Assembly (NCBI GenBank): GCA_964450975.1
Contig: CAYVFO010000006.1
Span: 1 to 40,193, forward strand
DNA length: 40,193 bases
Origin: an uncultured Elusimicrobia bacterium
GTDB taxonomy: Bacteria; Elusimicrobiota; Elusimicrobia; UBA1565; UBA9628
Direction: 5' to 3'
This document shows, in pieces, positions 1-37,091 of the stretch. The notes beneath the pieces were generated by a model. The model was given only the letters and a program-made list of their open reading frames with translations. It was not told the DNA's origin and searched no databases. The position numbers and the translations under genes are program-made. Each line of letters opens with the position of its first letter. The first letter of the stretch is position 1.

Positions 1-1168
1 CGGTCAGCAGGCCCGCGCGCGCGCCGAGGATGCCGAGCCAGCGCTCGACGTGCGAGTAGTCGCGCTTCATCTCCGGGGCGTAGCCCTCGACGCCGCGCAT
101 CGCGGCCGCGCCGTGACGGCGCCACGGAATCGAAGCGCCGCGCAGCTCGAGCGAGACGACGGCCTTGCCGTTCTCCATCCCCCACCAGCGCACGCCGAGG
201 TAGGCGTGCTTCTCGCTGTCGAAGTCCTTCCACGAGGGCTGATGCGCCGCGCCGCCGGCGGCGGCGAGGTCCTTCACGCGGCGCGAGCGGCCGGCGTGCC
301 AGGGCTTGAGCGAGCCGTGGAAGAGGTTTTCAGGGCTATCAATAGCCGCTTCAAGAAAAAGGACCTCGTTGAACGCGGTCACCGTCTCGAGCAGCGCGTC
401 GAGCTGCGCCGCGAGCGACTCGGGGGAGAGCTTCACGAAGACGTGGTACTGCGTGCCGGCGTGGCCGGTGTCGGAGATCACCTGGCGCGTGCGGCCGATC
501 GCCTCGCGGCCGGTCGCGGCGGGCTTGTCCTTGGCCGACACGATCTCGGGCTGGATGAAGCGCATCGGGCCCGAAAGCTTGCCGGTCGGCGGCTCCTCCA
601 TGTCGGGATGCTCGGCGACGAAATCGGGCGCGTTCTTCGACTTGCCGAGCAGCAGGAAGTTCTTCCCCTTCCAGGCCGCGGCCTCGCCCTTCTCCGCGAC
701 GACCGCCTGCTCGAGGCCGTCGAGATACGTGAGCTTGCCGCCGAGCGGAAGCGCGTTCCAGATCCTCTCCGGATCGGAGCGGGTGCGCAGGCCGAAGGCG
801 CTCTTCACCGCGTAGGAGATCTTGTCGAAGCCGGTCAGCGCGGCCTGCGTCTTCTGCAGCAGGTCGGGCCGGAGCTCGACGGGCTTGTAGTAGCGGAAGA
901 CGTTTCCGGATGAGTCCTTCGCGTCGGACGCGACGAGATTGCCCTCCTGCTCGTTCTGGTAGAAGACTCCGGGGCGCTCGACCGTGAGGGAGGGCGCGAG
1001 GGTCGGCGTGAGGGAAGCCGCGGAGAGCTGCGGACCGGCGAGGAGGGCGGTCGGCCCGGAAAACGCCCCGATCGAGGGAACGACCGGAGCCTCGACGCGG
1101 ATCTCGACCACCGCCGCGTGGAGCGGCAGGGTCAGGGCCCACAGCAGGACGGCGGCGAGCTTCCTCAT
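1..1168 (-). CDS. Exported protein (signal peptide + Ala/Pro/Ser-rich leader), possibly amidoligase / COOH-NH2 ligase-like; 3' end runs off the window
   Basis: Not in the ORF track; read by hand. ATG at 1168, open to the window edge (389 codons). Starts MRKLAAVLLWALTLPLHAAVVEIRVEAP...; later motifs QPEIVS, GTQYHVFV, EKHAYLG, SLELRG. The ORF is solid, the family call is weak. Confidence 0.8.
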   Translation of the reverse strand, partial: MRKLAAVLLWALTLPLHAAVVEIRVEAPVVPSIGAFSGPTALLAGPQLSAASLTPTLAPSLTVERPGVFYQNEQEGNLVASDAKDSSGNVFRYYKPVELRPDLLQKTQAALTGFDKISYAVKSAFGLRTRSDPERIWNALPLGGKLTYLDGLEQAVVAEKGEAAAWKGKNFLLLGKSKNAPDFVAEHPDMEEPPTGKLSGPMRFIQPEIVSAKDKPAATGREAIGRTRQVISDTGHAGTQYHVFVKLSPESLAAQLDALLETVTAFNEVLFLEAAIDSPENLFHGSLKPWHAGRSRRVKDLAAAGGAAHQPSWKDFDSEKHAYLGVRWWGMENGKAVVSLELRGASIPWRRHGAAAMRGVEGYAPEMKRDYSHVERWLGILGARAGLLT

Positions 1169-1175
1169 CAAAGCA

Positions 1176-1219
1176 AGGATAGCCGCCGGGCCGCGGGCGC
1201 GCCTGGGCCGGGAGACCTA
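1176..1219 (-). promoter_or_regulatory. Palindromic operator TAGGTC-TCCC-GGCCC (1205-1219) plus -10 TATCCT (1176-1181)
   Basis: 23 nt between motif and -10; -10 lies 7 nt before ATG 1168; same layout at 9376-9419 and 14792-14836. Confidence 0.6.
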
Positions 1220-1232
1220 GGCGCGGAGGGGC

Positions 1233-9323
<8,091 letters not shown>

Positions 9324-9375
9324 GCTGGTTCTCTCCCTATGAGTACCACGACGACGTGCCTCAGGCGACGCCGTG

Positions 9376-9419
9376 ATTCTAGAAACTGTTGACCTGGATC
9401 AATAGGGACGAGGGGCCCA
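9376..9419 (-). promoter_or_regulatory. Palindromic operator TGGGCC-CCTC-GTCCC (9405-9419) plus -10 TAGAAT (9376-9381) for the giant gene
   Basis: 23-nt gap between motif and -10, identical to the gap at 1176-1219. Confidence 0.6.
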
Positions 9420-9481
9420 TAAAAGGAAAAGCATGGGGCCCACGCGCAGGCGGGACTATTGGCGAGTAACTTCGCTCGCCG

Positions 9482-9562
9482 CTAGCGGTGAGGAGGGATG
9501 CGGAACGAGCGGCCGGACAGGGCTACGGCGACGAGGCGGACGACGCGCGAGATGAGCTCCAT
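9482..9562 (-). CDS. Candidate 26-aa small peptide MELISRVVRLVAVALSGRSFRIPPHR
   Basis: ATG 8 nt after the MerR-gene stop, preceded by SD-like AGAGGA; no homology evidence. Confidence 0.3.
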   Translation of the reverse strand: MELISRVVRLVAVALSGRSFRIPPHR

Positions 9563-9570
9563 GATGTCCT

Positions 9571-9840
9571 CTAGGCGTGGCCGGTCCGCAGCCGCAGGAT
9601 GACGCGGATGCCGGCGAGATTGACCTTCTGCTCCATGAGGCCGCGCACGTCGCGCAACCGGTCGAGATCGACGTCGTTGTACAAGCGCTGGCGCCCCCGC
9701 GTCCGCGAGGGACGCAGGAGGCCGTGGCGCTCGATCCAGCGCAAAGTCCAGATCGGGATTCCCGTCAGCCGCGAGGCGGCGCCGATCGTGTAGACCGGCG
9801 TCGAGTCCGTTCGGCGGACCGGCCGGTATAGCCTTCCCAT
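9571..9840 (-). CDS. MerR-family transcriptional regulator, HspR-like (89 aa)
   Basis: PVYTIGAASRLTG...TLRWIERHGLLRPSRT.GRQRLY MerR HTH and the VNLAGI motif typical of HspR; GGAGG SD before ATG 9840, preferred over the 9954 start in the track. Confidence 0.85.
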   Translation of the reverse strand: MGRLYRPVRRTDSTPVYTIGAASRLTGIPIWTLRWIERHGLLRPSRTRGRQRLYNDVDLDRLRDVRGLMEQKVNLAGIRVILRLRTGHA

Positions 9841-9972
9841 CTCTCCCCCTCCGCGCGAATCTTGACGTACGGCGTCCAGGTCGCGGTTCTCTTCACGAAC
9901 ATCCAGGGCATCAGGTCCTTGGCGATCATCGGCGAGATCCTCCCGGCCCGTCAACCTCGTAGCAGCTGCGAA

Positions 9973-10001
9973 TATATAACAGCTTTCCTAATATATGTCA
10001 A
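9973..10001 (-). promoter_or_regulatory. sigma70-type promoter for the HspR-like gene
   Basis: TTGACA (10001-9996), 17-nt spacer, TATATA (9978-9973) in an AT-rich intergenic patch. Confidence 0.7.
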
Positions 10002-10065
10002 GAGCTTATCTAACAGAAAATATCATGGGGTTTTCCCTCTCCCGATTGTGTGTTAGAATTTCGGC

Positions 10066-11424
10066 GTGAAGACGCTGCAGATCTATCTCGCCGATCTCAA
10101 GGAGCTGCTCAAGGCCCGCGACTTCGTGTCGGCGCGCACGATCCTCAAGGAGATCGGGCCGATCGATCTCGCCGACGGCTGGGACTACTTCGACGCCGAC
10201 GAGCGCGTCGCGATCTTCCGCCTGAGCACGCGCCAGAAGGCGATCCAGCTCTTCGAGGAGCTCGACGCTCCCCAGCAGGCCGAGCTCATCAACGGGCTGC
10301 AGCGCAAGGACGCGCAGGAGCTGCTCGACGACCTCGATCCCTCGTCGACGAGCCGCATGCTCCGCGACCTGCCCGCGCCGCTCGTCCGCCACTTCAACGC
10401 GATCATGAAGAAGGGCGGTCAGGAGTGCGTCAAGCAGTTCCTCCAGTACCCGCCGAAGTCCGTCGGCGCGCTGATGCGCGGCCGCTGGGTCACGCTCGAG
10501 GAGAAGTGGACGACGAAGGCCGCGCTCGACCGCGTGCAGTACAGCACGCGCCTGCGCCGCATCGAGGAGACGCACCTCGACACCTTGATGGTCGTCGACG
10601 CGAAGAACCGGCTGCGCGGGACCGTCGGTCTCAAGTCCCTCGTCGTCGCGCCGAACGACATGCACGTGCGCGACCTCATGGATCCCGCGCCGCGCACGCT
10701 CTCAGCCGAGGCGGACCAGGAAGAGGCGGTCAAGCTCTTCACGAAGTACAAGCTCAAGAGCGCCCCGGTCGTCGACAGCGAGGGCTCGCTGCTCGGCGTC
10801 GTCGTCTACAAGGACATCTTCGCGATCGCGAGCGAGGAGACGGAAGAGGACTTCGCGAAGATGGCCGGCTTCGCGCGCGGCCCCGCGCGCACGGTCCTCG
10901 GCAGCGCCGGCGCGCGCATCCCGTGGCTCGTGATCACGTGCTTCGGCGGCGTGCTCGTCTCGCACGTGATCAAGAACTTCGAGTCCACGCTCTCCCAGAT
11001 CATCGCGCTCGCGAGCTTCTCCCCCCTGATCGCGGGCATGGGCGGCAACGTCGGCGCGCAGACCGCGACGATCATGGTCCGCGGCCTCGCGACCGGAGAG
11101 ATCGCCCCCGAGGACGAGAAGAAGGCGATCCTGCGCGAGATCTCGATCGGACTGCTGCTCGGTCTCGCGTACGGCGTCGTCGTCGGCTCGATCGCGGGCC
11201 TCGTCTACCACGACCGCTACGGCTGGTGGTTCTCGGTCGTCGTCGGCCTCTCGATGGCGTTCTCGATGCTCGTCGCGTCGATCATGGCGTCGCTCGAGCC
11301 GTTCGTGCTGCGCAAGCTCGGCGTGGACCCGGCGACCGCGACGGGTCCGATGATCACGACGACCACGGACCTGCTCAGCAACGCGTTCTACTTCACGCTC
11401 GCGAGCTGGCTGCTTCTGCGCTAG
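10066..11424 (+). CDS. mgtE: Magnesium transporter MgtE
   Basis: MgtE N-domain, CBS pair, membrane domain with GMGGNVGAQ and DPATATGPMITTTTD; TGtTAGAAT -10 lies 6 nt before the GTG. Confidence 0.93.
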   Translation: MKTLQIYLADLKELLKARDFVSARTILKEIGPIDLADGWDYFDADERVAIFRLSTRQKAIQLFEELDAPQQAELINGLQRKDAQELLDDLDPSSTSRMLRDLPAPLVRHFNAIMKKGGQECVKQFLQYPPKSVGALMRGRWVTLEEKWTTKAALDRVQYSTRLRRIEETHLDTLMVVDAKNRLRGTVGLKSLVVAPNDMHVRDLMDPAPRTLSAEADQEEAVKLFTKYKLKSAPVVDSEGSLLGVVVYKDIFAIASEETEEDFAKMAGFARGPARTVLGSAGARIPWLVITCFGGVLVSHVIKNFESTLSQIIALASFSPLIAGMGGNVGAQTATIMVRGLATGEIAPEDEKKAILREISIGLLLGLAYGVVVGSIAGLVYHDRYGWWFSVVVGLSMAFSMLVASIMASLEPFVLRKLGVDPATATGPMITTTTDLLSNAFYFTLASWLLLR

Positions 11425-12056
11425 CCGCCGCGCGACTGCAGGACGCCCTGGAACTCCGCGTCGGGCTCGGCGCGCAGGTCGTACCCCAGCTCGAGCTTCA
11501 GCGTCTCGGCGTGCAGCATCAGGCGTTTGGCGCCCCCGATCGGCCGCGGGGGCGGGCCGTAGCGCGGGTCGCCGAGCACGGGGTGGCCCTCGGAGCTCAG
11601 GTGCGCGCGGATTTGGTGCTTGCGGCCCGTCGCCGTCCAGACGCGCAGCAAAGTCGCGCCGCGCAGAGCGCGCTCGACGCGCCAGAACGTCTTCGCCGGC
11701 TTGCCGTCGGGCGCCGGCGCGACGCGTCCCGAGCTGAACTCGCGCAGAGGCTTGTCGATCTCGCCGCTGCCGGTCATCGAGCCGAGCACCGCGACGAGAT
11801 ACTCCTTCTTGGCGCGGCGCTGCTCGAACTCCATCGAGAGCAGGCGGTGCGTCTCCGCGTCCTTGGCGAAGACGAGGATGCCGCTCGCGTCGAGGTCGAG
11901 GCGGTGCACGACCCAGATTTTCTTGCGCAGGCGGCGCTCGATCTCCATGTTGACGGCGACCGCGATCTCGCCGCGGCCAGGGATGGTCGGACGGCCGCAC
12001 GGCTTGTGGACGGCGATGATCTTGTCGTCCTCGAAGACGACCGCGGCTTCGATCAT
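11421..12056 (-). CDS. RluA-family RNA pseudouridine synthase (211 aa)
   Basis: HKP.G, VHRLDLDASG (catalytic Asp), TGRKHQIRAH, GDPRYG, LHA; ATG 12056 overlaps the upstream stop (ATGA). Confidence 0.92.
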   Translation of the reverse strand: MIEAAVVFEDDKIIAVHKPCGRPTIPGRGEIAVAVNMEIERRLRKKIWVVHRLDLDASGILVFAKDAETHRLLSMEFEQRRAKKEYLVAVLGSMTGSGEIDKPLREFSSGRVAPAPDGKPAKTFWRVERALRGATLLRVWTATGRKHQIRAHLSSEGHPVLGDPRYGPPPRPIGGAKRLMLHAETLKLELGYDLRAEPDAEFQGVLQSRGG

Positions 12057-14782
12057 GGCGCTTCTGAGCGGCTCAATCCGAAGGCCGGGCGGTAGCGCGA
12101 GCCCGCGAGCCAGACGAGGCGCGGACCGTCCGCGTACCGGACGGCGCGGACCGTCGCGCCCCAGAAGATCGTCCCTTTCGCGGCGACGGGGGCGTCGCCG
12201 CGCGAGGCGTCGGCGAAAGTCTCGACGGCGGGCGCGGGCGCCTCCGGCAGGGCGGCGACGGCGCCGCCGAGGACGCGCCGCAGGAACGCCGCGCGCCGCG
12301 CGACGGAAGGGCCGTCGGCGAAGAGCAGCGCCGCGTTCACCGAGAGGACGCCGGCGTCGAGGCGCGCGGGGACCGGGTCGAAGTGGACGCCGAGGCGCAG
12401 GCCCTTCGCGGCGGCGAGCCCCGCGGCGAGGTCGAGCAGGCCCGCGTCGAGCGGCTTCTCGGCGCTCGGCGTCGACGCGAGCGCCCGGGCGTGCGCGTTG
12501 CCGGCGCGGATCGCGGGAATCATGAGCGTGACGCCGCCGCGCGCCCAGCCGAGGAAGCCGCGCAGGGACCGGACGAACGCGACGACGGCGGAGGGCGGCT
12601 TGCCGAGGCCGGTCGTCATCTTCTCGCCCAAGGCGAGAACTGACTTGTAGATGTTTCCGTTCGCGTTCGCGCCGGCGAGGACGTTCACCGGGTCCGCGGA
12701 CTCGAGCGTCGCCTGCGGGGCCTTCGCGCCCGGCGGCAGGATGTCGGCGACGATCATGCCGTTGAAGTTCACGAGAGACGCGTACTTGCCGTTGGCCCAC
12801 GAGCCGGTCAGCAGGCGGTCCGACAGCGCGATGCTGCCGTCGTGCGTCATGTGGATCATCGTGTTGTTGGCGAACGCGACGTCGCCGGGCGTCTCCTCGA
12901 ACGCCGTCTGCTGCGCGTGATCGTTGAGGTTGAGCCAGACGGGCTTCATCCAGGAGCGCAGCCGCGGGAGCGCCTGGAGGCGGTCCGCGCCGCCGGACTC
13001 GGGGAACAGCTCCGCGGCGAGGGCCTCGTAGCCCTCGGGCACGCCGCCGCCGTAGTGGCCGTGCGCTCCGAGCACCGCGTCGCGCGAGAACACGCCCTGA
13101 GTCACGGCCCAGAGGCTGCGCGCGTTGATGTCGTAGGACTCGATGACCACCTTCCAGTCCGCGGGATTCTCCTTCGCCTGGCGCAGAGCCGCCTCGACGA
13201 GGATGGCGAGCGAGTACGGCTCCTGGCCCGAGCCCATGCCGAGGCTCTTGAGCACGAGCGTCCGCTCGCCGGCCTTCGCCTTCGCCGCGATCATCCTGTC
13301 GAGCGAGCGGCGCGTCGCGCCCGCCCAGAACTTGCGGTCGCGGAAGAAGCCGCTGAACATCTCGCCGGAGTGCATCGGCAGCAGGTCGAGGCGCTTGCCG
13401 AGCTCCCGGCGCTCGGCCGCGCCGTCCTCGGAGAGGGCCCAGCCGGCGTACGCCTCGGGCGTCGCGAAGCCGAGCTCGGAGGCGCGCGCGCGCAGCGACG
13501 GCGCGATCGCGTCCTCGAGAACGGCGGAGAGCTCGGCGGCGTCCTTCGGCGGCTCGGGGAGATCGGTCACGGCGGCGGCCACGGCGGCCGCGAGCTTCGG
13601 CTCGGAGATCAGCGCCTTGGAGAGATCGGCGAGCGGGCGGGCGTCGCCGCGGACGGGCGCGCGCTCGAGCCACTCCTGCGTCACCCGGCGCCACGGCAGG
13701 AGCTCCGCCGAGACGCCGCTGCGCGCGAGAAGCCACGGATAGAACGAAGGGAATGTGATCCGCATCACGAAGCGCCCCGCTCGCGTCGACTCGAGCTTCC
13801 GGGAGATCCCCGCGGGGACGTTCGAGCGCCACTCGACCACGCCGGACTTCGTCACGACCGCGAAGCGGGCGTTCTTGCCGGCGGAAGTCTCCAGATCCAT
13901 GGGCGACGGATATTCGGAGTGGACGGAGTAGGCGCCGAGCCTGGTCTCGGGATGATTGTGGATCGCGATGTCGTAGTCGCCCCACTCGCCCGAGACCTCG
14001 TGACGGCCGCCGCGCGCGGCGAGCCAAGCTCCGTCGGAGCGGCGGCGGTACAGGAACACCTCGTACGGGAGCTCGGCGAGAGCCTCGAGGCTCTTGGGGG
14101 ACGGGACGAAGCTCAGCTCGAGCGGCGCTCCGGACGGAGAAGCCCCCAGCTCCGCCAACGCCGCCTTCATCCGCGAGCCGTCGGCGTCCGTCCTGCCGGA
14201 GGACGGCGCGGACTTCTTGGCGGCGACGAGCTTCTTGAAGGGCTTGAGCGGAGAGAACCACCGCTTGCCGTCGCCGGAGGTCTCGGCCGACGGAGCGGAG
14301 AGGACGCCGTCCGCGAGCGCGGCGGGCGCGTCGAGCTGCGCGCGGGAGTTGAAGTCTTTCTCGGCCGCGACGGAGGACTCGCCGGTCCCCATCTTGGACG
14401 TGTCGAGCGAGGGCGCGGCGAGCGTCTCGATGAGAGCCTTCGGCGCGGCGGCCTTGCCGGGCTTCACCGGCACGGCGGCCTTGACGGAAGCCGCGCCTTT
14501 CACCGGAACGATCGCCTTGCTCGCCGCCGGTTTGAGCGGAACGAGCGCGGAGGGCACGGCGGCGATCAAGGACGGAGAGGCCGTCGGCGTCAGAGAAGGA
14601 GCGGACAACGACAGGCCCGGCACCAAGGCGGAGTTCGAGAGCTGGAGCGGGACGACGTTGACTCCGGCCTGGATTCCCGGCACCGGAGCGGGAGCGGCGA
14701 GCTCGACCTCGACGCGCACGGTGGCGGCCGCCGCCGGGATGGCGGCGCAGACGAGGAGGACGGCGCCGAGGGGAAACGCCAT
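12053..14782 (-). CDS. Exported 909-aa protein with a JAB/MPN-like metallo-motif and a CheR-like SAM methyltransferase domain
   Basis: Signal peptide MAFPLGAVLLVCAAIPAAAA; YE...HNHP...PSPMD (JAMM-like); FFRD, SLGMGSGQEPYSLAI, SYDIN, LNLN, DVAFANNTMIH align with CheR motifs. Confidence 0.8.
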   Translation of the reverse strand: MAFPLGAVLLVCAAIPAAAATVRVEVELAAPAPVPGIQAGVNVVPLQLSNSALVPGLSLSAPSLTPTASPSLIAAVPSALVPLKPAASKAIVPVKGAASVKAAVPVKPGKAAAPKALIETLAAPSLDTSKMGTGESSVAAEKDFNSRAQLDAPAALADGVLSAPSAETSGDGKRWFSPLKPFKKLVAAKKSAPSSGRTDADGSRMKAALAELGASPSGAPLELSFVPSPKSLEALAELPYEVFLYRRRSDGAWLAARGGRHEVSGEWGDYDIAIHNHPETRLGAYSVHSEYPSPMDLETSAGKNARFAVVTKSGVVEWRSNVPAGISRKLESTRAGRFVMRITFPSFYPWLLARSGVSAELLPWRRVTQEWLERAPVRGDARPLADLSKALISEPKLAAAVAAAVTDLPEPPKDAAELSAVLEDAIAPSLRARASELGFATPEAYAGWALSEDGAAERRELGKRLDLLPMHSGEMFSGFFRDRKFWAGATRRSLDRMIAAKAKAGERTLVLKSLGMGSGQEPYSLAILVEAALRQAKENPADWKVVIESYDINARSLWAVTQGVFSRDAVLGAHGHYGGGVPEGYEALAAELFPESGGADRLQALPRLRSWMKPVWLNLNDHAQQTAFEETPGDVAFANNTMIHMTHDGSIALSDRLLTGSWANGKYASLVNFNGMIVADILPPGAKAPQATLESADPVNVLAGANANGNIYKSVLALGEKMTTGLGKPPSAVVAFVRSLRGFLGWARGGVTLMIPAIRAGNAHARALASTPSAEKPLDAGLLDLAAGLAAAKGLRLGVHFDPVPARLDAGVLSVNAALLFADGPSVARRAAFLRRVLGGAVAALPEAPAPAVETFADASRGDAPVAAKGTIFWGATVRAVRYADGPRLVWLAGSRYRPAFGLSRSEAP

Positions 14783-14791
14783 GATTTCCTG

Positions 14792-14840
14792 AGTTTAACA
14801 GCCCTCCTTCCAACGCGCCAGGGGTCGAAAGACCTATAAT
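14792..14840. promoter_or_regulatory. Divergent control region: minus-strand extended -10 TGtTAAACT, palindrome TAGGTC-TTTC-GACCC (14822-14836), plus-strand -10 TATAAT (14835-14840)
   Basis: Palindrome lies 24 nt from the minus-strand -10 and overlaps the consensus TATAAT that sits 7 nt before GTG 14848. Confidence 0.65.
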
Positions 14841-14847
14841 AGGGAAG

Positions 14848-15213
14848 GTGACGAAGGCCTTAATCCTCGTGGTCGAAGACGAGCGCCCCGTGTACGAGAT
14901 CCTCGCGCGCGCGCTCGAGGCGAAAGGCCATAACGCCCGCCACGCCGAGAGCGCCGAAGCCGCCGAGGCCGCGCTCGCGAGCGGCTCCTTCGACCTCGTG
15001 CTGCTCGACCACGTGCTTCCGGGCGCGACCGGGATGCAGTCGCTCTCGCGCCTGCGCGCGCTCACCAAGGCGCCCATCCACATGATGAGCGGCTACACCG
15101 GCGACGACACCCGCGAGGACGCCCTGCTGCTGGGCGCGGCGGGCTTCATCCCGAAGCCGCTCGATCTCGCGCAGGTTTTCGCCGTCGTGGACGCCCTCCC
15201 GGAGAAGAAATGA
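14848..15213 (+). CDS. Single-domain response regulator (receiver)
   Basis: LVVEDE, DLVLLD, MSG, FIPKP receiver motifs. Confidence 0.9.
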   Translation: MTKALILVVEDERPVYEILARALEAKGHNARHAESAEAAEAALASGSFDLVLLDHVLPGATGMQSLSRLRALTKAPIHMMSGYTGDDTREDALLLGAAGFIPKPLDLAQVFAVVDALPEKK

Positions 15214-17190: not shown

Positions 17191-17852
17191 AGCGCCGCCT
17201 CGAGCGTCGACAGCGCGAGCAGCCAGCGCTCCTCGCGGCCCGCGTCGTCGAAATCCTCGTACGTCATCTCGCCCGAGGGGCTCTTCGCGAGCACGGCGCG
17301 GGCGCCCTTCGAGCGCAGCGCGCGCGGCGCGCGCGCCGCGAGCTCCGCGACGAGCGCGCGGAAGTTGAGGTCGGCGCTGATCGCCATCTTGTCGCCGAGC
17401 GCGGCGTAGTCGAAGTCGGCGGCCAGCAGCCGCAGGCGCCTCGCGGGGTCGACGAACACGAGCTCGATGAACTCGGGCCGCTTCCCCCCGCCCTTGCGCA
17501 CGAGCCCGGCGGAGAGCACCGCGAGCTTCGTCCACGACAGCCGGCCGCCGGGCGCGTCGAGGCCGTCGTTGGAGAGCTCCGCCTTCAGCACGGCCTGCGG
17601 CGGCGGCGGCGCGTCGAGCAGGCTCGCGGGGACCGCGATCGCGGCGCTGCCGGCGGCCGTGAGCTTGGCCGCGAGCGCCTCCGCCGTCTCGGCCGGAGTC
17701 GGCTCGAAGAGGATGCCCCAGCCGCGGCGCACGACCGGGAGCCACGTCTCGGCGGAAAGCCCCGCGTGGCCGCCGATCGCCCCGGCGACGGACTTGGGCT
17801 CGAAGCGCGCGGGCTCCCGCAGCAGCACGGCGTGCGGGGGCCGCTCGGTCAC
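17187..17852 (-). CDS. Hypothetical protein (221 aa)
   Basis: Translationally coupled on both sides (GTGA overlaps); typical codon usage. Confidence 0.75.
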   Translation of the reverse strand: MTERPPHAVLLREPARFEPKSVAGAIGGHAGLSAETWLPVVRRGWGILFEPTPAETAEALAAKLTAAGSAAIAVPASLLDAPPPPQAVLKAELSNDGLDAPGGRLSWTKLAVLSAGLVRKGGGKRPEFIELVFVDPARRLRLLAADFDYAALGDKMAISADLNFRALVAELAARAPRALRSKGARAVLAKSPSGEMTYEDFDDAGREERWLLALSTLEAAL

Positions 17853-18553
17853 TTAGGAGGGATCAGCGCGTAGCCGCGTCCGGAGACGGACACGAGCCAC
17901 TGGTCCGACTTCCAGCCGAGCTTCAGGCGCACGCGGCGCACGTGGACCTCGACGGTCTTGAGCGCGCCCTCGGACGGAGCCTCGACGCCCCACACCTCTT
18001 TGTAGACGACGGAGCGGTCGGTCGGGTTCGGCGTCTTCGACGCGAGGTAGTACAGCAGCTCGAACTCCTTCGGCGTGAGGTGCTGGTGCTCCTGCTTGCC
18101 GAGCTTGACGATCTTGCGCGGGTAGTCGAGCGAGAGTCCGCCGACCTCGAGCTTAGCGGGCGGCTCGGCGCGCTCCTCGCCGGCGTTGCGGCGCAGGATC
18201 GCGCGCGCGTACGCGAGCAGGCGCTCGCTCTTCACGGGCTTGGTGAGATAGTCGTCGGCGCCCATGTCGAGGCACGCGATGTCCTGGCCTTCCTTGTCGT
18301 TGCCGGTCAGGATGATGATCGGCACGCGCGCGGTCTTCGCGTCCTGCTTGAGGTGCTGGCACACCTCGAGGCCCTTCATGCCGGGCATGACGAGGTCGAG
18401 GATGACGAGGTCGGGCGGATCGGACTGGACCGCCATGATTCCCGCCTTGCCCGACGGCGCCTGCTTCACTTCATAGCCTTCGAGGCCGAGCACGTCGCTC
18501 ACGGCCTTCCGGAACGAGGCGTCGTCTTCGATGAGAAGGACCTTCGGTGCCAT
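17849..18553 (-). CDS. OmpR/PhoB-family response regulator
   Basis: Receiver (IEDD, DLVILD, GADDYLTKP) plus winged helix (LTPKEFELL, TVEVHVRRVRLKL, GRGY). Confidence 0.93.
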   Translation of the reverse strand: MAPKVLLIEDDASFRKAVSDVLGLEGYEVKQAPSGKAGIMAVQSDPPDLVILDLVMPGMKGLEVCQHLKQDAKTARVPIIILTGNDKEGQDIACLDMGADDYLTKPVKSERLLAYARAILRRNAGEERAEPPAKLEVGGLSLDYPRKIVKLGKQEHQHLTPKEFELLYYLASKTPNPTDRSVVYKEVWGVEAPSEGALKTVEVHVRRVRLKLGWKSDQWLVSVSGRGYALIPPK

Positions 18554-22098: not shown

Positions 22099-25000
22099 CA
22101 GCGGCGCTTCTCGTAGCGCGCCAGCGGGCGCGCGCGGTCTCCGCGGAAGCCGGGCGTCTGCTCGCGATCGTGCGCTCCCGCTTCGCGCGAGACGCGCGCG
22201 CCGAGGAAGTCGGCGAGCTCGCCGGCGGTGAGCGTTCCGTCCTTGTCCGCGTCGGCCTCGCCGTCGAGACCGCGCAGCGCGTACCACGTGAAGAGGCCGT
22301 GGCGCTTCGCGGGGAACGCCGAGCTCACCTGCGAGCCCGACGCCGCCGAGAACAACGAGACCTTGCCCGGAGGAACGACCGGCTCGACCTTCAGCGACAA
22401 AGGGCGGGCGTCGGCGATCAGCGGGCGGCTCTCGCGGTCGGCGCCCGAGAAGCACGCGTCGAGCCAGACCGTGACCGACTTCGCCTTCGAGCCGTCGAGA
22501 GACTTGAGCATGTCGTCGATCGGGAAGCCGGTCTCGACGGCGTAGTTCGGATCGCCATCCTGCGGGACGAGGTACGCGCCTTTGCCGTCGAGCGACGGCG
22601 CTCCGTGCCCCGCGTAGAACACGAAGACCTCGGACTGAGGGCCCACGCGCCGCGCGAGCCAGCCGCTCGGCGAGAACGCCTTGCGCAGCTCGGCGAGCGT
22701 CACGCCCTCGTCGAGGTAGAACATGTGGTTCGCGTCGTCGGGAACGCCGAGCACGCCTGCCGCGAACGCGCGGAAGGCGGCCGCGTCGCGGCGAGCGTGC
22801 GAGACGCGCGGCGCCTTAGGATAGTCCTCGACGCCGAGAATCACGGCGTAGGCCTCCGGACGCGCCGCCCCCCGGGCGGCCGGCGTCTCGATCGCCTCGG
22901 AGGAGCCGGCTTTCGGGAGGTCCTTGCCCTTGACGACGAGCTCGCGCGCGGAGCCGAGCGGCCTCGACAGCGGCACCTCGACGGGCGCGTCCCAGGAGTC
23001 GACGCCGTCGCCGAGCGCCGCGCGCAGCCGCAGCGTCCCCGCCGCGGACGTGTTCGAGAAGACGGTGAAGCGCGCCGTCGCGGAGGCGCCCGCGGCGAGC
23101 GCGCCGAGCGTCCGCCGCGCCTCGCCCTGCACGAACGCGTCCGCGTTCGCGCCGGCGAGAGTAATCGCCGCGGCGCCCGCCGCTCCCTCGCCGTCGTTGC
23201 GCACGACGACCGCGATCTCCGCGAGCTCGCCGGGCGAAACCACGCCGTCGCCGCCCGAATCGGATACTTTGATCGACGCGACCGACAGCTTCGCCCCCCG
23301 CCGCGCGCGCGTCTCGAAGACCATCTTGATGCCGCCCGAGGCGAAGCCGTTGGCGTCCTCGGCGGAAACGGTCAGAGATCGCGAGCCGTCGGCCGCGCCG
23401 GCGAGAGCTTTGACCGGGATCGTCACGGTCTTCGACGCTCCCGGGGCGATCTCGCCCGCGAAGTGGCGCGCGGCATAGCTCAAGCCGTCCGCCGCCGCCG
23501 GCGCCACGGCGACCGAGGCGCCGTAAGACGCGCCGGCGCCGGAGTTGGAGATCACCACCGAGATCTTCGCTGTCTCTCCCGCGCCGAGGCGCGCGTCGCC
23601 GTCGGCGTCCGCGAACTCCGCCTTCACGTCGAGCTTCGCCGGCGCGGCGGGCGCGGTGCGGGACCGCTTCACCGTTCCGGCCCCCGACGACCAAGTGAAG
23701 AGCTGCCCGAGTTCCTTGTCCGACACCGACAGGCGCAGGTCCTCGCGGACGGGCTTGCCGTCCTCGAGGCGGTGCCGGTAGCTCGCCTCGGCGCTCATGC
23801 GGCGGGACTTCGCCGCCTGGGCGTCCTTGCGCGCGATCGCGAGCTTCACCGCCCGCGTGGAGCCGTCGATGTCGACGACCGCGTCGAACTCCTCGGCGTC
23901 GGCGTCGTAGCTGCCGACCGTGATCGCGACGGGCTCGTTGATCTCCTCGTCGAGCGCCGCCTGCAGCGCCTCGCGCACTTTGCCGGCCTCGTCGCGGTCC
24001 TTCGCGTCGTAGACCGCGCCGATGCGCGCGGCTTCGGCCGCCGCTTCCCCGCGCTCGAGCGCGTCCTGCTCGTCGGCCGCCTTCATCCGCTGCGCGTACT
24101 CGGCGGCGGACTCGAACTCGCCCTTCGGCGTGCGGCGGGCCTTGGCCTTGCCGGCGTAAATCTCCGCGCTGCTCTGCAGCTCGGTCCTGCGGCGGTTCGC
24201 GAGCCGCTCCTCGATCTCCTTCTTGCGCCCGGAGAGCGCGGCGATCGCCGCGCGCTGCAGCTTCCCGCGGCGCAGGCGCCACGCGCGTCCCCCGTAGCCC
24301 GCGAGCCAACGGCCGTCGGCCGTGAAGACCGGATCGAAAAAATAATCAGGGAAATGGAGGACGATGATCGCGTCGTACCGGAGATCGGTGAGATACCAGG
24401 ACCGCGAGTCGGTTCCGCTGGTCAGGAAGTACCGTTCATCCGGGCTGAAGAGCGCGAGGTAAGTGCTGAACTCGGGGAGACCGGCGACCCTGCGCCCGCT
24501 CGGGATCTCGTATACGGCGGAGAGGTACTTCGATCTCTCGTAGGATTTCAACGCGACGAGCTTCGACGAAGGCGAGAACAGCTGCTCATAGCTGGAGCGC
24601 ACGCCGAGGTCGGCGACGGTCGTTCCGGCCGTCAGATCTTTGATCGCCGCGCCGCCGCCCGCGTCGACGAGCATATAGCGATCGTCCGGCGTCGTTTGAC
24701 CGCCGTCGAACAGCGACTGGGGAACGGGCGTCAACTCGGGCATCGAGTAGGATTTCTTCCCGGCGGCGAGCCATTTCCCGCCGCCCGAGAATTTGACGCG
24801 GCAATACGTTCGGTCGCAGGCGCCGACCGTCTTCGACTTGCCGGTCTGAAGGTCGACGAGGACGATGTCGAGCGAGTTGTCGCCGTAAGCGAACCAGCGG
24901 CCGTCCGGAGTGTCGGACCACTCGGACGAGTTGCGGAGACGCCCCCTGTGGATCATGCGGCCGTCGGAGCCGTAGAGCTCGAAACGGCCGTCGCTCAAAT

Positions 25001-25658
25001 CGACGCGGCGATAATTCGGCGCGGGCCGGTAATTCCGGTCCAGCCCGGGCTCGACCGCCTGCGGAGGCGCCGTGCATACCGCGCCGAAGTAGCCGTCGCA
25101 GACCACTCCGAATTCGAGATCGTAGGTGGCCGGGTAGCCGCCCTTCTCCAGCGACTGGAAGAAAATCATGCGGGCGTCGGTCTCGAAGGGATATTTCCAC
25201 TTTCCGAGCGTCCGCTTCCGGTTTCCTTCGAACTCGAAGGCGACCACGTAGTCCCCCTCGACGGCGACGACGCGCTTGCACGAGCGGTCGCCCTTCCACG
25301 CCGCCGTCTTCGGCGACGGCGTGAAGCGCACGCGGCCGGCTTCGTCGAGCACCTCGAGCTTGTTGTCGACGACCCGGATTCTCGGGCAGGACTCCGCCTT
25401 GGCGGGCTCGATCATGACGGCCGTACCGCGCTCCAAGTCGACGATCCATCGGCCCCGGGTGCCGTAGTCGTTCTCCGAATAGGTCTCGATGCGGATCTTG
25501 CGGTTGCGCGTGCCGTCGAACACGACGCGCGCGCCGTCGAGCGGCCGCGTCTCGCTGACCGCCCCTCGGAAATCGTAGTCCCACTGGGGCTCGACGATGG
25601 ACTGCGCCGGCGCGGCGGCGGCGAGAAGCGAGACGAGGGCGAGTGTTCGGAGGGCCAT
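22098..25658 (-). CDS. Secreted caspase-family (peptidase C14) protein with beta-propeller, coiled-coil and Ig-like domains
   Basis: Signal peptide; repeated FSPD/TPDGRW blades; two Ig/CARDB-like units (D.DGD...GE...I.V.V.N.G.G); catalytic FYAGHG and LDACFSG. Confidence 0.88.
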   Translation of the reverse strand: MALRTLALVSLLAAAAPAQSIVEPQWDYDFRGAVSETRPLDGARVVFDGTRNRKIRIETYSENDYGTRGRWIVDLERGTAVMIEPAKAESCPRIRVVDNKLEVLDEAGRVRFTPSPKTAAWKGDRSCKRVVAVEGDYVVAFEFEGNRKRTLGKWKYPFETDARMIFFQSLEKGGYPATYDLEFGVVCDGYFGAVCTAPPQAVEPGLDRNYRPAPNYRRVDLSDGRFELYGSDGRMIHRGRLRNSSEWSDTPDGRWFAYGDNSLDIVLVDLQTGKSKTVGACDRTYCRVKFSGGGKWLAAGKKSYSMPELTPVPQSLFDGGQTTPDDRYMLVDAGGGAAIKDLTAGTTVADLGVRSSYEQLFSPSSKLVALKSYERSKYLSAVYEIPSGRRVAGLPEFSTYLALFSPDERYFLTSGTDSRSWYLTDLRYDAIIVLHFPDYFFDPVFTADGRWLAGYGGRAWRLRRGKLQRAAIAALSGRKKEIEERLANRRRTELQSSAEIYAGKAKARRTPKGEFESAAEYAQRMKAADEQDALERGEAAAEAARIGAVYDAKDRDEAGKVREALQAALDEEINEPVAITVGSYDADAEEFDAVVDIDGSTRAVKLAIARKDAQAAKSRRMSAEASYRHRLEDGKPVREDLRLSVSDKELGQLFTWSSGAGTVKRSRTAPAAPAKLDVKAEFADADGDARLGAGETAKISVVISNSGAGASYGASVAVAPAAADGLSYAARHFAGEIAPGASKTVTIPVKALAGAADGSRSLTVSAEDANGFASGGIKMVFETRARRGAKLSVASIKVSDSGGDGVVSPGELAEIAVVVRNDGEGAAGAAAITLAGANADAFVQGEARRTLGALAAGASATARFTVFSNTSAAGTLRLRAALGDGVDSWDAPVEVPLSRPLGSARELVVKGKDLPKAGSSEAIETPAARGAARPEAYAVILGVEDYPKAPRVSHARRDAAAFRAFAAGVLGVPDDANHMFYLDEGVTLAELRKAFSPSGWLARRVGPQSEVFVFYAGHGAPSLDGKGAYLVPQDGDPNYAVETGFPIDDMLKSLDGSKAKSVTVWLDACFSGADRESRPLIADARPLSLKVEPVVPPGKVSLFSAASGSQVSSAFPAKRHGLFTWYALRGLDGEADADKDGTLTAGELADFLGARVSREAGAHDREQTPGFRGDRARPLARYEKRR

Positions 25659-37071: not shown

Positions 37072-37091
37072 GATTCGCAACTCTACATTTT

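Follow-up and report, generated by a model that had tools for sequence, protein, structure and literature searches.

The window analysed is a stretch of 40,193 nucleotides, comprising one entire contig (C6) from an uncultured groundwater Elusimicrobia bacterium whose genome is 81% complete. Three genes on its minus strand, encoding P0004, P0001 and P0003 (listed with their features below), have reading frames that are backed by codon-position GC (GC3 0.93-0.97). Since the window is the whole contig, P0004 is cut at its C-terminus; its likely start codon is the ATG at 1168. An earlier note had assigned signal peptides to these three same-strand genes, and each product does begin with the features of a signal-peptidase-I-type signal peptide, i.e. 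a K/R n-region, a hydrophobic core of 12-15 residues and A-x-A ahead of the predicted cut. Our gene, signal-peptide and helix predictions are simple in-house heuristics and are rough.

Features of the three genes. A slash marks the predicted signal-peptide cut.
Feature	Position	Strand	Basis
P0004, leader-family gene, C-terminus lost at contig end	2..1171	-	GC3 0.93; leader HMM E 7.5e-4
P0004 signal-peptide-like N-terminus (MRKLAAVLLWALTLPLHA/A)	1115..1171	-	family consensus A-x-A/Q
P0004 shortened leader (AVVEIRVEAP ... LSAASLTPTLAPSL)	980..1114	-	17.5 bits vs shuffle maximum 8.3
P0004 -10-like TATCCT, 7 nt upstream of ATG at 1168	1176..1181	-	sequence reading
P0001, 2696 aa: tag, M50 intramembrane protease domain, long middle region, ClpB-like double AAA+, C-terminal region	1233..9323	-	codon-position GC, Pfam
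P0001 ClpB-like double AAA+ part, aa ~1262-1979	3387..5540	-	PF07724 215.6 bits; ClpB_D2-small
P0001 M50 (site-2-protease-like) membrane domain	7764..8606	-	PF02163, 36.7 bits; hydropathy: several hydrophobic helices
P0001 basic A/K/P spacer, two GGPRWV motifs, FDG	8772..9011	-	sequence reading; FDG statistics
P0001 charge-poor leader, aa 33-104	9012..9227	-	26.0 bits vs shuffle maximum 8.1; full-leader HMM E 5.8e-10
P0001 signal peptide, aa 1-32 (...LPAAA/Q)	9228..9323	-	heuristic signal-peptide prediction
P0001 -10-like TAGAAT, 39 nt past start of repeat 2	9376..9381	-	sequence reading; layout comparison
P0001 promoter repeat 2 (ATGGGCCCCTCG), -97, 23 nt past repeat 1	9409..9420	-	10.5 bits
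P0001 promoter repeat 1 (GTGGGCCCCATG), -120	9432..9443	-	9.7 bits; terminator-like hairpin overlapped
P0003, 909 aa: tag, conserved N-domain (aa ~100-400), CheR-type methyltransferase domain, C-terminal region	12053..14782	-	codon-position GC, Pfam, orthologues
P0003 CheR SAM-binding domain match, aa 477-570	13073..13354	-	PF01739, 35.2 bits vs cut-off 27
P0003 basic A/K/P spacer, DFNSR, basic Trp motif	14213..14533	-	sequence reading
P0003 leader (TVRVEVEL ... LSAPSLTPTASPSL ... VPSALVPL)	14534..14722	-	20.2 bits vs shuffle maximum 3.4; full-leader HMM E 4e-6
P0003 signal peptide (MAFPLGAVLLVCAAIPAAA/A)	14723..14782	-	heuristic signal-peptide prediction
P0003 -10-like TAAACT, 9 nt upstream of ATG	14792..14797	-	sequence reading; essentially no 5' UTR
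P0003 promoter repeat 2 (ATAGGTCTTTCG), -55	14826..14837	-	12.0 bits
P0003 promoter repeat 1 (TTAAGGCCTTCG), -81	14852..14863	-	9.4 bits

The signal peptides are followed by leaders whose resemblance is sequence-specific and goes beyond mere composition. An HMM seeded with 30 other proteins of the genome, leaving out the window genes, matched all three window proteins with the E values tabulated; at E<1e-3 it had no match in the reversed proteome or in the proteome shuffled within 40-residue windows. The mature leaders alone scored 17-26 bits, compared with 8.3 or less in 200 shuffles of each. In pairwise searches P0003 retrieved P0004 (E 2.8e-4), while P0001 retrieved neither of the other two. 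A scan for further leader-bearing proteins, which the note had proposed, found at least 45 in the genome (E<=1e-4), with none in the reversed and none in the locally shuffled proteome in every one of five rounds. Their cargo is diverse, much of it of cytoplasmic type, and an upstream repeat motif is common among them.

These proteins share an N-terminal module that we term the tag. The signal peptide, of signal-peptidase-I type with Gln at +1 (A at -3, 0.63; A at -1, 0.81; Q at +1, 0.63), leads into a short strand-like Q[TV]xRVxV, then a charge-free segment of about 56 residues that is rich in Pro, Ser, Thr, Ala and Leu, with the core LTPSLSAPSL and then VPSALKP. Next comes a net-basic A/K/P spacer, frequently carrying a basic Trp motif, and finally the FDG motif, with the cargo beginning beyond it. 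The charge profile is distinctive: charged residues stay at or below 0.03 per residue across about 60 positions, and are followed by about 30 residues in which K/R exceed D/E. The longest run free of D, E, K and R has a median of 56 residues in the family against 15 in 1474 other proteins, and the 30 residues downstream of it are net positive in 35 of the 45. [FY]DG occurs within the first 260 residues of 24/45 family proteins against 95/1199 others (odds ratio 13.3, p 2.6e-14), and FDG is retained in the orthogroups of P0004 and of an MFS-kinase protein from other species.

The three genes are members of a lineage-specific family that is recognisable across the order. Leader matches occur in 24 of the 38 genomes from the genus (at least nine matches in 16 of those 24), in 40 of the 101 from the order and in 2 of 151 sampled across the phylum. 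A search of 1.84 billion representative proteins gave only 25 matches at E<=1e-3, 24 of them N-terminal.

The note had read the three cargoes as ClpB-type AAA+, CheR and an ATP-dependent ligase; Pfam bears out the first two. P0001 scores 500 bits with the ClpB model TIGR03346, under its cut-off of 1232, and 33 of the 38 genomes from the genus have the half of the protein outside ClpB (residues 130-1250). Its FDG lies at aa 182-184 (8772-8780), a third GGPRWV motif at aa 243-251, and an HExxH at aa 287-291 (8451-8465), inside the M50 domain. P0003 has a CheR domain, but scores 10.3 bits against 435 for the NCBIfam CheR equivalog. Its DFNSR (14342-14356) is a variant of the FDG motif, with DFMAR and DFESR at the matching place in orthologues, and its basic Trp motif is GKRWFSPLKPFKK at 14213-14269. 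P0004 orthologues have a longer leader with FDG; the full-length orthologue has 562 aa and in one genome (G183) directly follows the P0001 orthologue. The assignment of P0004 as a ligase is unsupported, since Pfam gave no match for P0004 or this orthologue, and a PDB sequence search with the orthologue gave none.

Across the genome the family promoter layout consists of direct repeats (approximately TGGGCCCtTTG) at -75 and -52, with a -10 box adjoining the start codon. Repeat sites are found at 22/44 family genes, 37/434 other signal-peptide-like genes and 12/1048 remaining genes, a contrast that is inflated because start sites are more certain for family genes than for the others. There are 35 repeat pairs in the genome against one in the reversed genome. 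Strong sites peak 75 nt upstream of start codons, where 25 candidates lie, 16 of them signal-peptide-like (baseline about 4 and 1), and the positions are retained in four other species. The single operator and -10 layout that the note had ascribed to all three window genes is clear for P0001 and P0003, but weak for P0004 (PWM 6.9 and 5.5 bits). The spacing from repeat 2 to the -10 in P0001 equals that of genes lacking a 5' UTR, but leaves P0001 itself a UTR of about 50 nt, and repeat 1 of P0003 falls within the start of a divergent receiver gene.

The cargo is highly mixed, comprising ClpB-like and CheR proteins, kinases, MFS, ABC and CDF transporters, intramembrane proteases, nucleases and peptidases. 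The paradox raised in the note is real: a textbook export signal precedes enzymes that depend on ATP or SAM, and for the soluble members the puzzle persists. Cargo needing ATP, CoA or SAM includes the ClpB-like protein, CheR and a dTMP-kinase/APH fusion among the HMM members, and a second ClpB-like protein, an acyltransferase+AMP-binding protein and a PPK2 among proteins that seem tagged by eye only. The note resolved this by having the leader deliver the enzymes into other cells. This is unsupported, and its own counter-condition, that the proteins remain in the cytoplasm or inner membrane of the producer, is where the tagged membrane members count against it. Helices follow the tag in 21 of the 45 carriers, which are polytopic membrane proteins and include P0001, where the ClpB part is situated behind the multi-helix M50 domain. 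The MFS, ABC exporter and CDF folds always have the N-terminus inside the cell. One carrier is a 12-helix MFS protein that has motif A and continues into dTMP-kinase and APH domains, with zero helices from its tag to TM1; the tag likewise precedes a fused ABC exporter with canonical loops, a CDF transporter and a CPBP+HtrA protein with no added helix. In 19 of the 25 segments detected, K/R counts are greater across the 20 residues preceding the first post-tag helix than across the 12 that follow it. The tag is absent from plain MFS genes in the window and from those adjoining the tagged MFS gene. A Pfam search of the carriers found none of the known trafficking domains of toxin/effector systems. 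The polytopic carriers, and the canonical N-in transporters that follow the tag without an extra helix, make it most likely that the cargo remains within or on the inner membrane of the producer, and we infer no delivery into other cells.

Retention at the membrane has its own difficulties. The charge-free segment is poorly suited to form a membrane helix (best 19-residue window 1.0-2.0 on the Kyte-Doolittle scale, with 2-5 prolines), and so does not account for how the chain would return to the cytoplasm behind a signal peptide that can be cleaved. Nor do the hydrophobicity of the leader, the length of the run or the charge of the flank separate polytopic from soluble carriers (p 0.09-0.14). 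Helix-free members may instead be exported whole, with hydrolase cargo active in the periplasm; Endonuclease I, M16, M28, S8, amylase, DUF5117, helix-free M48 and ChaN-like cargoes are of types that are usually extracytoplasmic. In one member (C133_3) the basic flank comes behind a single helix, which fits a periplasmic tag. The genome is also rich in GT-C glycosyltransferases (25 matches to PMT_2 and 7 to Wzy_C), which would be in keeping with a periplasmic linker that is glycosylated.

Taken as a whole, the best explanation, which we hold tentatively and at a little short of an even chance, is a lineage-specific family in which an N-terminal address tag tethers the protein to the membrane and a common promoter type is used. 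During synthesis the hydrophobic head would lead the protein along the SRP/Sec route to the inner membrane of the producer, where the tag would then hold it as an anchor or tether at the N-terminus. In this topology the N-terminus and some of the charge-free segment would be outside, and the basic spacer and all beyond it would face the cytoplasm. The normal orientation of transporters and intramembrane proteases would thereby be kept, and domains dependent on ATP, CoA or SAM would act in the cytoplasm at the membrane. Many family genes and other genes for signal-peptide proteins would be transcribed from one promoter type, with two direct repeats 23 nt apart immediately upstream of the -35 region, the -10 near the start codon and an mRNA with no 5' UTR. 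The repeat motif common upstream of the carriers fits co-regulation, and the single promoter type suggests that one regulator may control an envelope regulon.

The leaders of the minus-strand genes P0004, P0001 and P0003 belong to a larger family of N-terminal sequences in the genome of this organism (G000). We use the term tag for the signal peptide, the glutamine at +1, a Q[TV]xRVxV strand, a charge-free segment, a basic Ala/Lys/Pro spacer and an FDG motif; the leader is the part of the tag behind the signal-peptide cut, and the cargo is everything behind the tag. An HMM was seeded with 30 G000 proteins chosen by a signal-peptide heuristic plus low charge, with the window genes left out; a strict-threshold jackhmmer search stopped at 6 matches, and the seed alignment with controls was used instead. 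The HMM matches 45 proteins at E < 1e-3 in the G000 proteome, and none in the reversed proteome or in one shuffled in 40-residue windows. It finds P0001, P0003 and P0004 with E-values of 5.8e-10, 4e-6 and 7.5e-4 respectively. With a model free of the signal peptide the mature leaders of P0001, P0003 and P0004 score 26.0, 20.2 and 17.5 bits, compared with maxima of 8.1, 3.4 and 8.3 bits in 200 shuffles; under default filters this model listed P0001 (E 9.9e-5) and P0004 (E 0.0025) only. After five HMM iterations the set had settled at 45 proteins (E ≤ 1e-4), and no round gave a match in the controls. Since the real proteome is matched and the reversed and shuffled controls are not, and since the shuffles score far lower, the likeness of the leaders proposed in the earlier note is real. 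About 15 further G000 proteins are leader-like by eye and nearly all of these are missed by the HMM; the 45-member family is a lower bound, corresponding to about 2% of the called proteome.

The window is contig C6 of G000 in full length (40,193 bases). G000, a metagenome-assembled genome, has 3.03 Mb of sequence in 349 contigs, a G+C content of 69% and a completeness of 81%, and its DNA is present in groundwater metagenome runs. Its genes were called crudely, by codon-position GC, giving 2062 ORFs that cover 76% of the genome. The same property backs the minus-strand frames of P0004, P0001 and P0003 (GC1 ~0.68, GC2 ~0.5, GC3 0.93-0.97) and rules out the long plus-strand frame at 1236-9392, which is a shadow. 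P0004 and P0001 are separated by 61 nt and may be co-transcribed; the gene order is the same in a second genome, G183. A MerR-family regulator gene lies between that of MgtE and P0001, with an AT-rich stretch upstream of it as its putative promoter region. The window is rich in signalling genes, and it also encodes a protein with a signal-peptide-like start, CARDB and caspase (Peptidase_C14) domains and no leader.

Coordinates of the leader-family genes and of other features in the window
Feature	Coordinates	Strand	Remarks
P0004	2-1171	minus	C-terminus missing at contig end
P0001	1233-9323	minus	2696 aa
Terminator-like hairpin	9431-9445		of upstream MerR-family gene
MerR-family regulator gene	9574-9954	minus	
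AT-rich stretch	~9985-10020		TTGACA...TATATT-like
MgtE gene	10066-11421	plus	
P0003	12053-14782	minus	909 aa
Receiver-only response regulator gene	14848-15210	plus	divergent from P0003
OmpR-type regulator gene	17852-18553	minus	
CARDB and caspase-domain gene	22101-25658	minus	1186 aa
Receiver-guanylate cyclase gene	33305-34240	plus	
Hybrid PAS histidine kinase gene	34243-37080	minus	

At the head of the tag P0001, P0003 and P0004 all have a basic n-region, then 12-15 residues of hydrophobic core, and A-x-A at the predicted cut, behind which the chain is enriched in Pro, Ser, Thr, Ala, Leu and Val. All three starts thus read as signal peptides of the signal peptidase I type, in keeping with the Sec-like signal peptides of the earlier note. 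In the leader HMM position 1 is R or K (0.73), the core is Leu/Ala, and there is Pro at -4 (0.39), Ala at -3 (0.63) and -1 (0.81) and Gln at +1 (0.63). By its sequence features the head of the tag is of the Sec/signal peptidase I class, with a predicted cleavage site; the topology of the tagged N-in transporters speaks against export of the cargo. Gln +1 is found in 34 of 41 high-scoring family members and in 89 of 453 other signal-peptide-like calls, as counted with a calling heuristic that itself favoured Q. A Gln +1 rule goes together with a glutaminyl cyclase: no gene for Glu_cyclase_2 (PF05096) was found in G000, which is 81% complete, and with respect to cyclases of M28 type one family member has an M28 domain in the Pfam scan. 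The Gln +1 rule (the 'Bacteroidetes Q-rule'; PMC5837995, PMC10653852) is stated to be specific to Bacteroidetes. Such signal peptides share with the tag the basic n-region, the short hydrophobic core, A-x-A and Gln as first mature residue. They differ in belonging to another phylum and in lacking a conserved leader of 100-170 residues behind the cut, and unlike their substrates the signal of the tag also precedes N-in transporters and ATP-dependent enzymes.

Behind Gln +1 the motifs are in the order [TV]-x-R-V-x-V, conserved prolines, the core L-T-P-S-L-S-A-P-S-L and then V-P-S-A-L-K-P. Some 60-70 leader positions are nearly without charge, followed by about 30 residues in which K/R exceed D/E. 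The longest run free of D, E, K and R has a median of 56 residues in the family (range 19-83), against a median of 15 and a 95th percentile of 32 in 1474 other proteins, and of the 45 family proteins 35 have a net positive charge over the 30 residues behind it. [FY]DG is present within the first 260 residues in 24 of 45 family proteins and 95 of 1199 others (odds ratio 13.3, p 2.6e-14). It is FDG at residues 182-184 of P0001; the variant in P0003 is DFNSR, with DFMAR and DFESR in P0003 orthologues. The leader of P0004 is shortened in G000, and orthologues of P0004 have the full tag with FDG. A basic Trp motif is often found downstream of the charge-free segment, as GGPRWVgPlK three times in P0001 and as GKRWFSPLKPFKK once in P0003. 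The leader corresponds to no NCBIfam model, and the family proteins scanned have no Pfam match in the leader region. A search of the PDB with the leader profile gave no relative, the sole match being a spurious one to the signal peptide (E 0.48), and a leader-alignment search for homologues among longer proteins gave just P0003, P0020 and P0029.

The G000-trained profile has a match at E ≤ 1e-5 in 24 of 38 genomes of the genus, 16 of which have 9-42 matches, and at E ≤ 1e-4 in 40 of 101 genomes of the order, which come from all three families and from 12 of the 33 genera. Of 151 genomes sampled evenly across the phylum 2 gave a match, and 1.84 billion representative proteins gave only 25 at E ≤ 1e-3, of which 24 are at the very N-terminus. 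The profile quickly loses sensitivity with distance. Orthologues in match-free genomes and genera have a signal peptide, a diverged charge-poor leader and an FDG-like motif, and diverged leaders are present nonetheless in the match-free genomes of the genus. These counts come from sampled, mutually related genomes, and so indicate where the tag was found and not where it is absent. Of the 38 genomes of the genus 33 have P0001, among them genomes without a leader match, and P0001 is therefore non-discriminating as a co-occurrence marker for tag machinery. A literature search found no description of such a leader, and the main text of a paper on groundwater Elusimicrobia genomes (10.1101/765248) makes no mention of signal peptides, secretion, pili, the outer membrane, N-terminal sequences or leaders.

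Many family genes have a -10-like hexamer TAnnnT that ends ~7 nt before the start codon, so close that transcripts without a 5′ UTR are implied. Upstream, two direct repeats of approximate sequence TGGGCCCtTTG begin at -75 and -52 of many family genes. Repeat pairs occur 35 times in G000 and once in the reversed genome. Strong single sites peak exactly 75 nt before start codons (25 candidate starts, 16 of them signal-peptide-like) and at 51-52 nt, on a flat background, and the repeat positions are the same in four other species. Among 44 family genes 22 have a site at -75 or -52; for the other genes with a signal-peptide-like start the figure is 37 of 434, and for all the rest 12 of 1048. The repeats appear from this to be part of a larger regulon of putatively envelope-directed proteins, and are not private to the leader family. 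Direct repeats are bound by regulators of the OmpR type, one of which is encoded in the window; these are candidates for recognition of the promoter motif, and candidates only. The earlier note had ascribed a shared operator and -10 layout to all three window genes. This stands for P0001, where the repeats are 23 nt apart and TAGAAT is 39 nt from repeat 2, the spacing of the family with an extra UTR of about 50 nt, and for P0003, with repeats at -81 and -55 and TAAACT 9 nt ahead of the ATG. It does not stand for P0004, which has TATCCT 7 nt ahead of its ATG and only weak repeat-like sites. We note that repeat 1 of P0001 is overlapped by the terminator-like hairpin of the MerR-family gene, and repeat 1 of P0003 by the receiver-only gene.

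The cargo was surveyed by Pfam scans of 43 of the 45 family proteins and of the 15 proteins that look tagged by eye, 58 in all; 18 of the 43 have no Pfam family. Membrane cargo includes four MFS proteins, among them a fusion with dTMP-kinase and APH-like domains and another with an L-amino-acid-ligase C-domain. It also includes an ABC exporter with TMD-NBD twice in one chain, a CDF transporter that has HEAT repeats, the M50 and ClpB-like double AAA+ protein P0001, and a CPBP/Rce1-like protein with HtrA/PDZ. By similarity C63_5476 is a second M50 protein. The soluble cargo comprises two M48 proteins with no predicted helices, a LonB/LonC-like protein, a weak PspA-like match, Endonuclease I, PD-(D/E)XK, EEP, two PLD proteins, alpha-amylase, M16, M28, M36, S8 with HEAT repeats, DUF5117, LOG and the CheR-type domain of P0003. 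Among the proteins tagged by eye are a second ClpB-like protein (1757 aa), M48 with MFS, an M1 aminopeptidase, an acyltransferase with an AMP-binding domain, PPK2, an HpcH-type aldolase, CPBP and a ChaN-like protein. The cytoplasmic-type cargo remarked on in three genes is thus a general trait across the tagged proteins. A family neighbour lies within 6 kb of 12 of the 45 family genes. At C76:3-9421 of G000 four family genes stand head to tail, and their products are an M28 peptidase, a protein with no family assignment, a nuclease of PD-(D/E)XK type and a polytopic protein; at C66:3-6597 the gene for the second ClpB-like double AAA+ protein adjoins that of a T2SSE-family ATPase.

P0001 scores 500 bits against the ClpB equivalog TIGR03346 (cut-off 1232), with AAA_2, AAA_lid_9 and ClpB_D2-small present; it is a ClpB-like AAA+ module within a 2696-aa fusion and not ClpB itself. 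Its M50 domain scores 36.7 bits against PF02163 (cut-off 27.2) and has both HETAH and NLLPLPQLDGG, and it is assigned to the M50/site-2 proteases on these grounds. Between the M50 and ClpB-like parts (residues ~520-1260) there are seemingly several repeats of ~90 residues, seen by eye and without a Pfam match, each ending in a sequence like V..V.V.p.l. The CheR Pfam domain of P0003 scores 35.2 bits (cut-off 27), covering only profile positions 3-90 of 195, and P0003 gives 10.3 bits against the 435 of the NCBIfam CheR equivalog. No PDB sequence matches P0003, and a P0003-based locus search of genome contigs found no relative. The P0003 orthologues L004 (in genome G010) and L005 (in G028) have the tag and residues ~100-400 in common with it, including an HNHP...SPxDL motif, and have an HExxH metalloprotease-like C-terminal domain in the position of CheR, so that the cargo has been swapped behind a conserved N-domain. 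An ATP-dependent ligase, one of the cargo types named in the earlier note, could not be confirmed in P0004: P0004 belongs to no Pfam or NCBIfam family, and a 562-aa orthologue has no Pfam family at E ≤ 1 and no PDB match. An AMP-binding ligase was found in another protein tagged by eye, C48_399.

Simple hydropathy indicates membrane helices behind the tag in 21 of the 45 carriers. MFS proteins, type-I ABC exporters and CDF transporters start in the cytoplasm. The tagged MFS-kinase protein has 12 helices, with MFS motif A (GGRLVDRFG) in loop 2-3 and basic loops on the N-terminal side throughout, and no hydrophobic segment between the tag and TM1. The tagged ABC exporter has the canonical short outer and long inner loops and a basic flank ahead of TM1, and the CDF and CPBP-HtrA proteins show the same pattern. 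For 19 of the 25 first post-tag helices detected there are more K/R in the 20 residues before than in the 12 after. Orthologues of the MFS-kinase protein in nine other species have all kept the signal peptide, the leader and (D)F(A)DG directly before TM1; plain MFS genes next to the tagged one, and one in the window, begin at TM1 and are untagged. Given the N-in folds, the lack of an extra helix and the K/R-rich flank before TM1, the chain behind the tag is almost certainly cytoplasmic in the tagged MFS, ABC, CDF and CPBP-HtrA proteins, to judge from their sequences. In P0001 the ClpB part comes after an M50 domain with several helices, so that on this reading P0001 would be an inner-membrane protein of the producer. 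A cleavable signal peptide should place the new N-terminus outside, whence the chain would have to cross back, and the charge-free leader is the only candidate for the crossing segment. Its best 19-residue window has a Kyte-Doolittle value of 1.0-2.0 and contains 2-5 prolines. This hydropathy and proline content oppose a normal membrane helix, which we considered for the leader and set aside; the leaders of polytopic and soluble carriers are alike.

The explanation that we tentatively prefer, while giving it somewhat less than an even chance, is that the tag is a lineage-specific N-terminal module for the membrane targeting and anchoring of proteins active in or at the inner membrane of the producer. 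The N-terminal part of the tag would be exposed outside the inner membrane, and the basic spacer and the cargo would be kept on the inside. Anchoring in this manner would fit the transporter topologies and the ATP-, CoA- and SAM-dependent cargo, as well as the membrane-acting enzymes, i.e. intramembrane and membrane-bound proteases, PLD-type enzymes, acyltransferase and acyl-ligase lipid enzymes, and a CheR-type enzyme. It gives no account of how a proline-rich segment spans the membrane, and it is uneasy with Endonuclease I, M28 or amylase as cargo. It is conceivable, if unlikely, that the tag is the signal of an undescribed route of topogenesis or sorting used by ~2-3% of the proteome and having its own regulator. 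In one version the N-terminus would again be outside and the rest inside, with the charge-free thread crossing the inner membrane without a normal helix; in the other the thread would take the cargo on through a second barrier.

Alternatively the whole protein might be exported, in which case the charge-free Pro/Ser/Thr/Ala segment would be an envelope spacer, flexible and perhaps O-glycosylated, or else a sorting element there, and the soluble cargo would work outside the cytoplasm. The textbook signal peptide with Gln +1, the many cargo proteins that are typical exported hydrolases and the promoter motif common to other signal-peptide genes (37 of 434, against 12 of 1048) favour this, and G000 has 25 PMT_2 and 7 Wzy_C matches, 3 secretins, 15 T2SSE ATPases above cut-off, BamA and SecA. 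Tagged transporters would however need unusual topologies, given the canonical N-in MFS, ABC and CDF folds directly behind the tag and the K/R-rich flank before TM1, and soluble cargo dependent on ATP, CoA or SAM would be of no use in the periplasm. A wholly uncharged soluble linker of ~56 residues is unusual, and the fixed motif order and FDG exceed the needs of a passive spacer; we consider export of the whole protein rather unlikely. A quite different possibility is that the tag is cut off around FDG near the cytoplasmic face, so that a leader peptide of ~130-170 residues is exported alone while the cargo is retained, in the cytoplasm or in the membrane. In that case the tag would merely bring the ribosome to the membrane, or would itself be a product. 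Physically this is the simplest way to reconcile a cleavable signal peptide, cytoplasmic post-tag regions and a non-helical leader; FDG, short and sharply conserved, stands where the tag borders on the cargo, and the family contains intramembrane and membrane-bound proteases (two M50, CPBP and Lon-like). Yet FDG is absent or altered in 21 of the 45 members, this analysis identified no candidate protease for an FDG-type site, and we know of none. Nor is there evidence of separate products, or a clear reason for dozens of unrelated proteins to give off peptides of one kind, and cleavage of this kind seems to us improbable.

It is likewise improbable that the tag has no shared function, being an ordinary signal peptide with a fast-evolving low-complexity linker that is alike between proteins through high G+C (Ala/Pro codons) and paralogue descent, and the upstream motif the general promoter style of the organism. 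This would be in keeping with the 69% G+C of G000, the rapid divergence of leaders between species (those of orthologues in match-free genomes being only loosely similar), the failure of the HMM with almost all of the 15 proteins that are leader-like by eye, and the presence of the promoter motif upstream of non-family genes. Against it, composition-preserving shuffles and the reversed proteome yield no matches, the motif order is fixed and FDG is 13-fold enriched. The cargo domains are unrelated, so that common descent of whole genes cannot account for the likeness, and promoter occupancy is 50% in the family compared with 1.1% in genes without a signal peptide. The earlier note proposed that the tag delivers its cargo into prey or host cells, in which case it might act in the manner of the disordered uncharged threading domains of bacteriocins with their N-terminal strand-forming 'box'. 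Delivery would account for an export signal ahead of soluble cargo that depends on ATP, CoA or SAM. Also in its favour are the nucleases, a phospholipase-D type, the peptidases and an amylase among the cargo, and the strand-like Q[TV]xRVxV at a free N-terminus with a long uncharged thread following; G000 has 5 TonB_C proteins, 3 secretins and many ATPases of T2SS/T4P type. But the 21 polytopic carriers, which include P0001, would insert into the membrane of the producer itself, and with cargo that is by topology inside the producer there is no need to send ATP-dependent domains to another cell. None of the 58 scanned proteins has a known toxin-trafficking Pfam domain, P0001, with 33 of the 38 genomes of the genus, has the distribution of a conserved core gene and not of a variable effector, and the genomes, of 2.4-4.9 Mb and from groundwater or freshwater metagenomes where the source is named, give no sign of a host. 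The statement in the earlier note that the window encodes no secretion apparatus agrees with its annotated genes. Delivery into other cells is thus unsupported, and we regard it as highly improbable.

The tag can be compared with several known systems. In colicin E9 the threading is done by the disordered N-terminal domain, and bacteriocin domains of this kind have a TonB box, which the strand-like motif of the tag may resemble; colicins have, to our knowledge, no signal peptide. Transport of colicin E9 through the porin OmpF by threading is reported (PMC8561637). In bacteriocin translocation domains as in the tag the N-terminus is a flexible thread without charge, and close to its free end is a short motif that forms a strand; some tagged members have nuclease cargo. 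The tag differs from colicins in that a signal peptide is present, no receptor-binding domain is seen and half of the carriers are membrane proteins. Complex-plastid bipartite signals consist of a signal peptide followed by a region like a transit peptide. They share with the tag the signal peptide, a hydroxylated acid-free stretch, a basic tail and a conserved first residue after the cut; they are however eukaryotic and use a second translocon, and in the present case neither a second compartment nor a second translocon is known or was found.

Linkers of exported proteins are a further comparison. In actinobacteria there are Ala/Pro/Thr-rich regions mannosylated by Pmt. Disordered N-terminal linkers of outer-membrane lipoproteins matter for sorting in E. 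coli, according to a preprint (bioRxiv 10.1101/2021.01.05.425367), and extracytoplasmic Ser/Thr-rich disordered regions of membrane-associated proteins of streptococci are described in a paper whose title names their glycosylation (PMC12041528). Like these, the tag has a low-complexity disordered stretch rich in Ser, Thr, Pro and Ala straight after the cut. The composition of the leader would suit an O-glycosylated low-complexity linker, and G000 resembles the glycosylated-linker systems in its many GT-C glycosyltransferase genes, which are no more than candidates for such a role. Unlike those linkers the tag has no lipobox Cys, and it has a fixed motif order, an FDG border, a basic spacer and a next segment that is predicted to be cytoplasmic. 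Of the 25 PMT_2 matches 12 are above cut-off, and with these and the 5 TonB_C proteins G000 has many envelope-machinery genes for 3 Mb. The leader gene C3_27796 has three PMT/PMT_2 genes immediately upstream.

C-terminal sorting signals with dedicated enzymes are known in the PEP-CTERM/exosortase, LPXTG/sortase and T9SS C-terminal domain systems. The tag resembles them in being lineage-restricted and present on dozens of unrelated proteins, in combining a signature motif with a hydrophobic stretch and a basic cluster, and in the partial clustering of the tagged genes (12 of 45). It differs in being N-terminal, and this analysis identified no sorting enzyme for it; among its cargo are polytopic transporters and enzymes of cytoplasmic type, and those systems carry neither. 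Taking the Q-rule, linkers, bacteriocins, plastid signals and sorting tags together, the tag does not match all of the defining features of any one.

The finding exceeds the observation of three genes. The tag is a putative N-terminal targeting signal with an undescribed second part and, as its promoters suggest, a regulon of its own. The position of such a tag behind a normal signal peptide and yet before N-in transporters and ATP-dependent enzymes clashes with textbook rules of membrane-protein topology, and there is a fair chance that a new mechanism of topogenesis or sorting lies behind it. The HMM, the FDG motif and the promoter repeats together provide simple annotation handles for a hitherto unnoticed regulon of envelope proteins in groundwater Elusimicrobia. 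New machinery has more than once been discovered through sorting tags that mark dozens of unrelated proteins, as with sortases, exosortases and type IX secretion, and the handling of this tag, once understood, could reveal a new form of protein anchoring or routing in an uncultured phylum.
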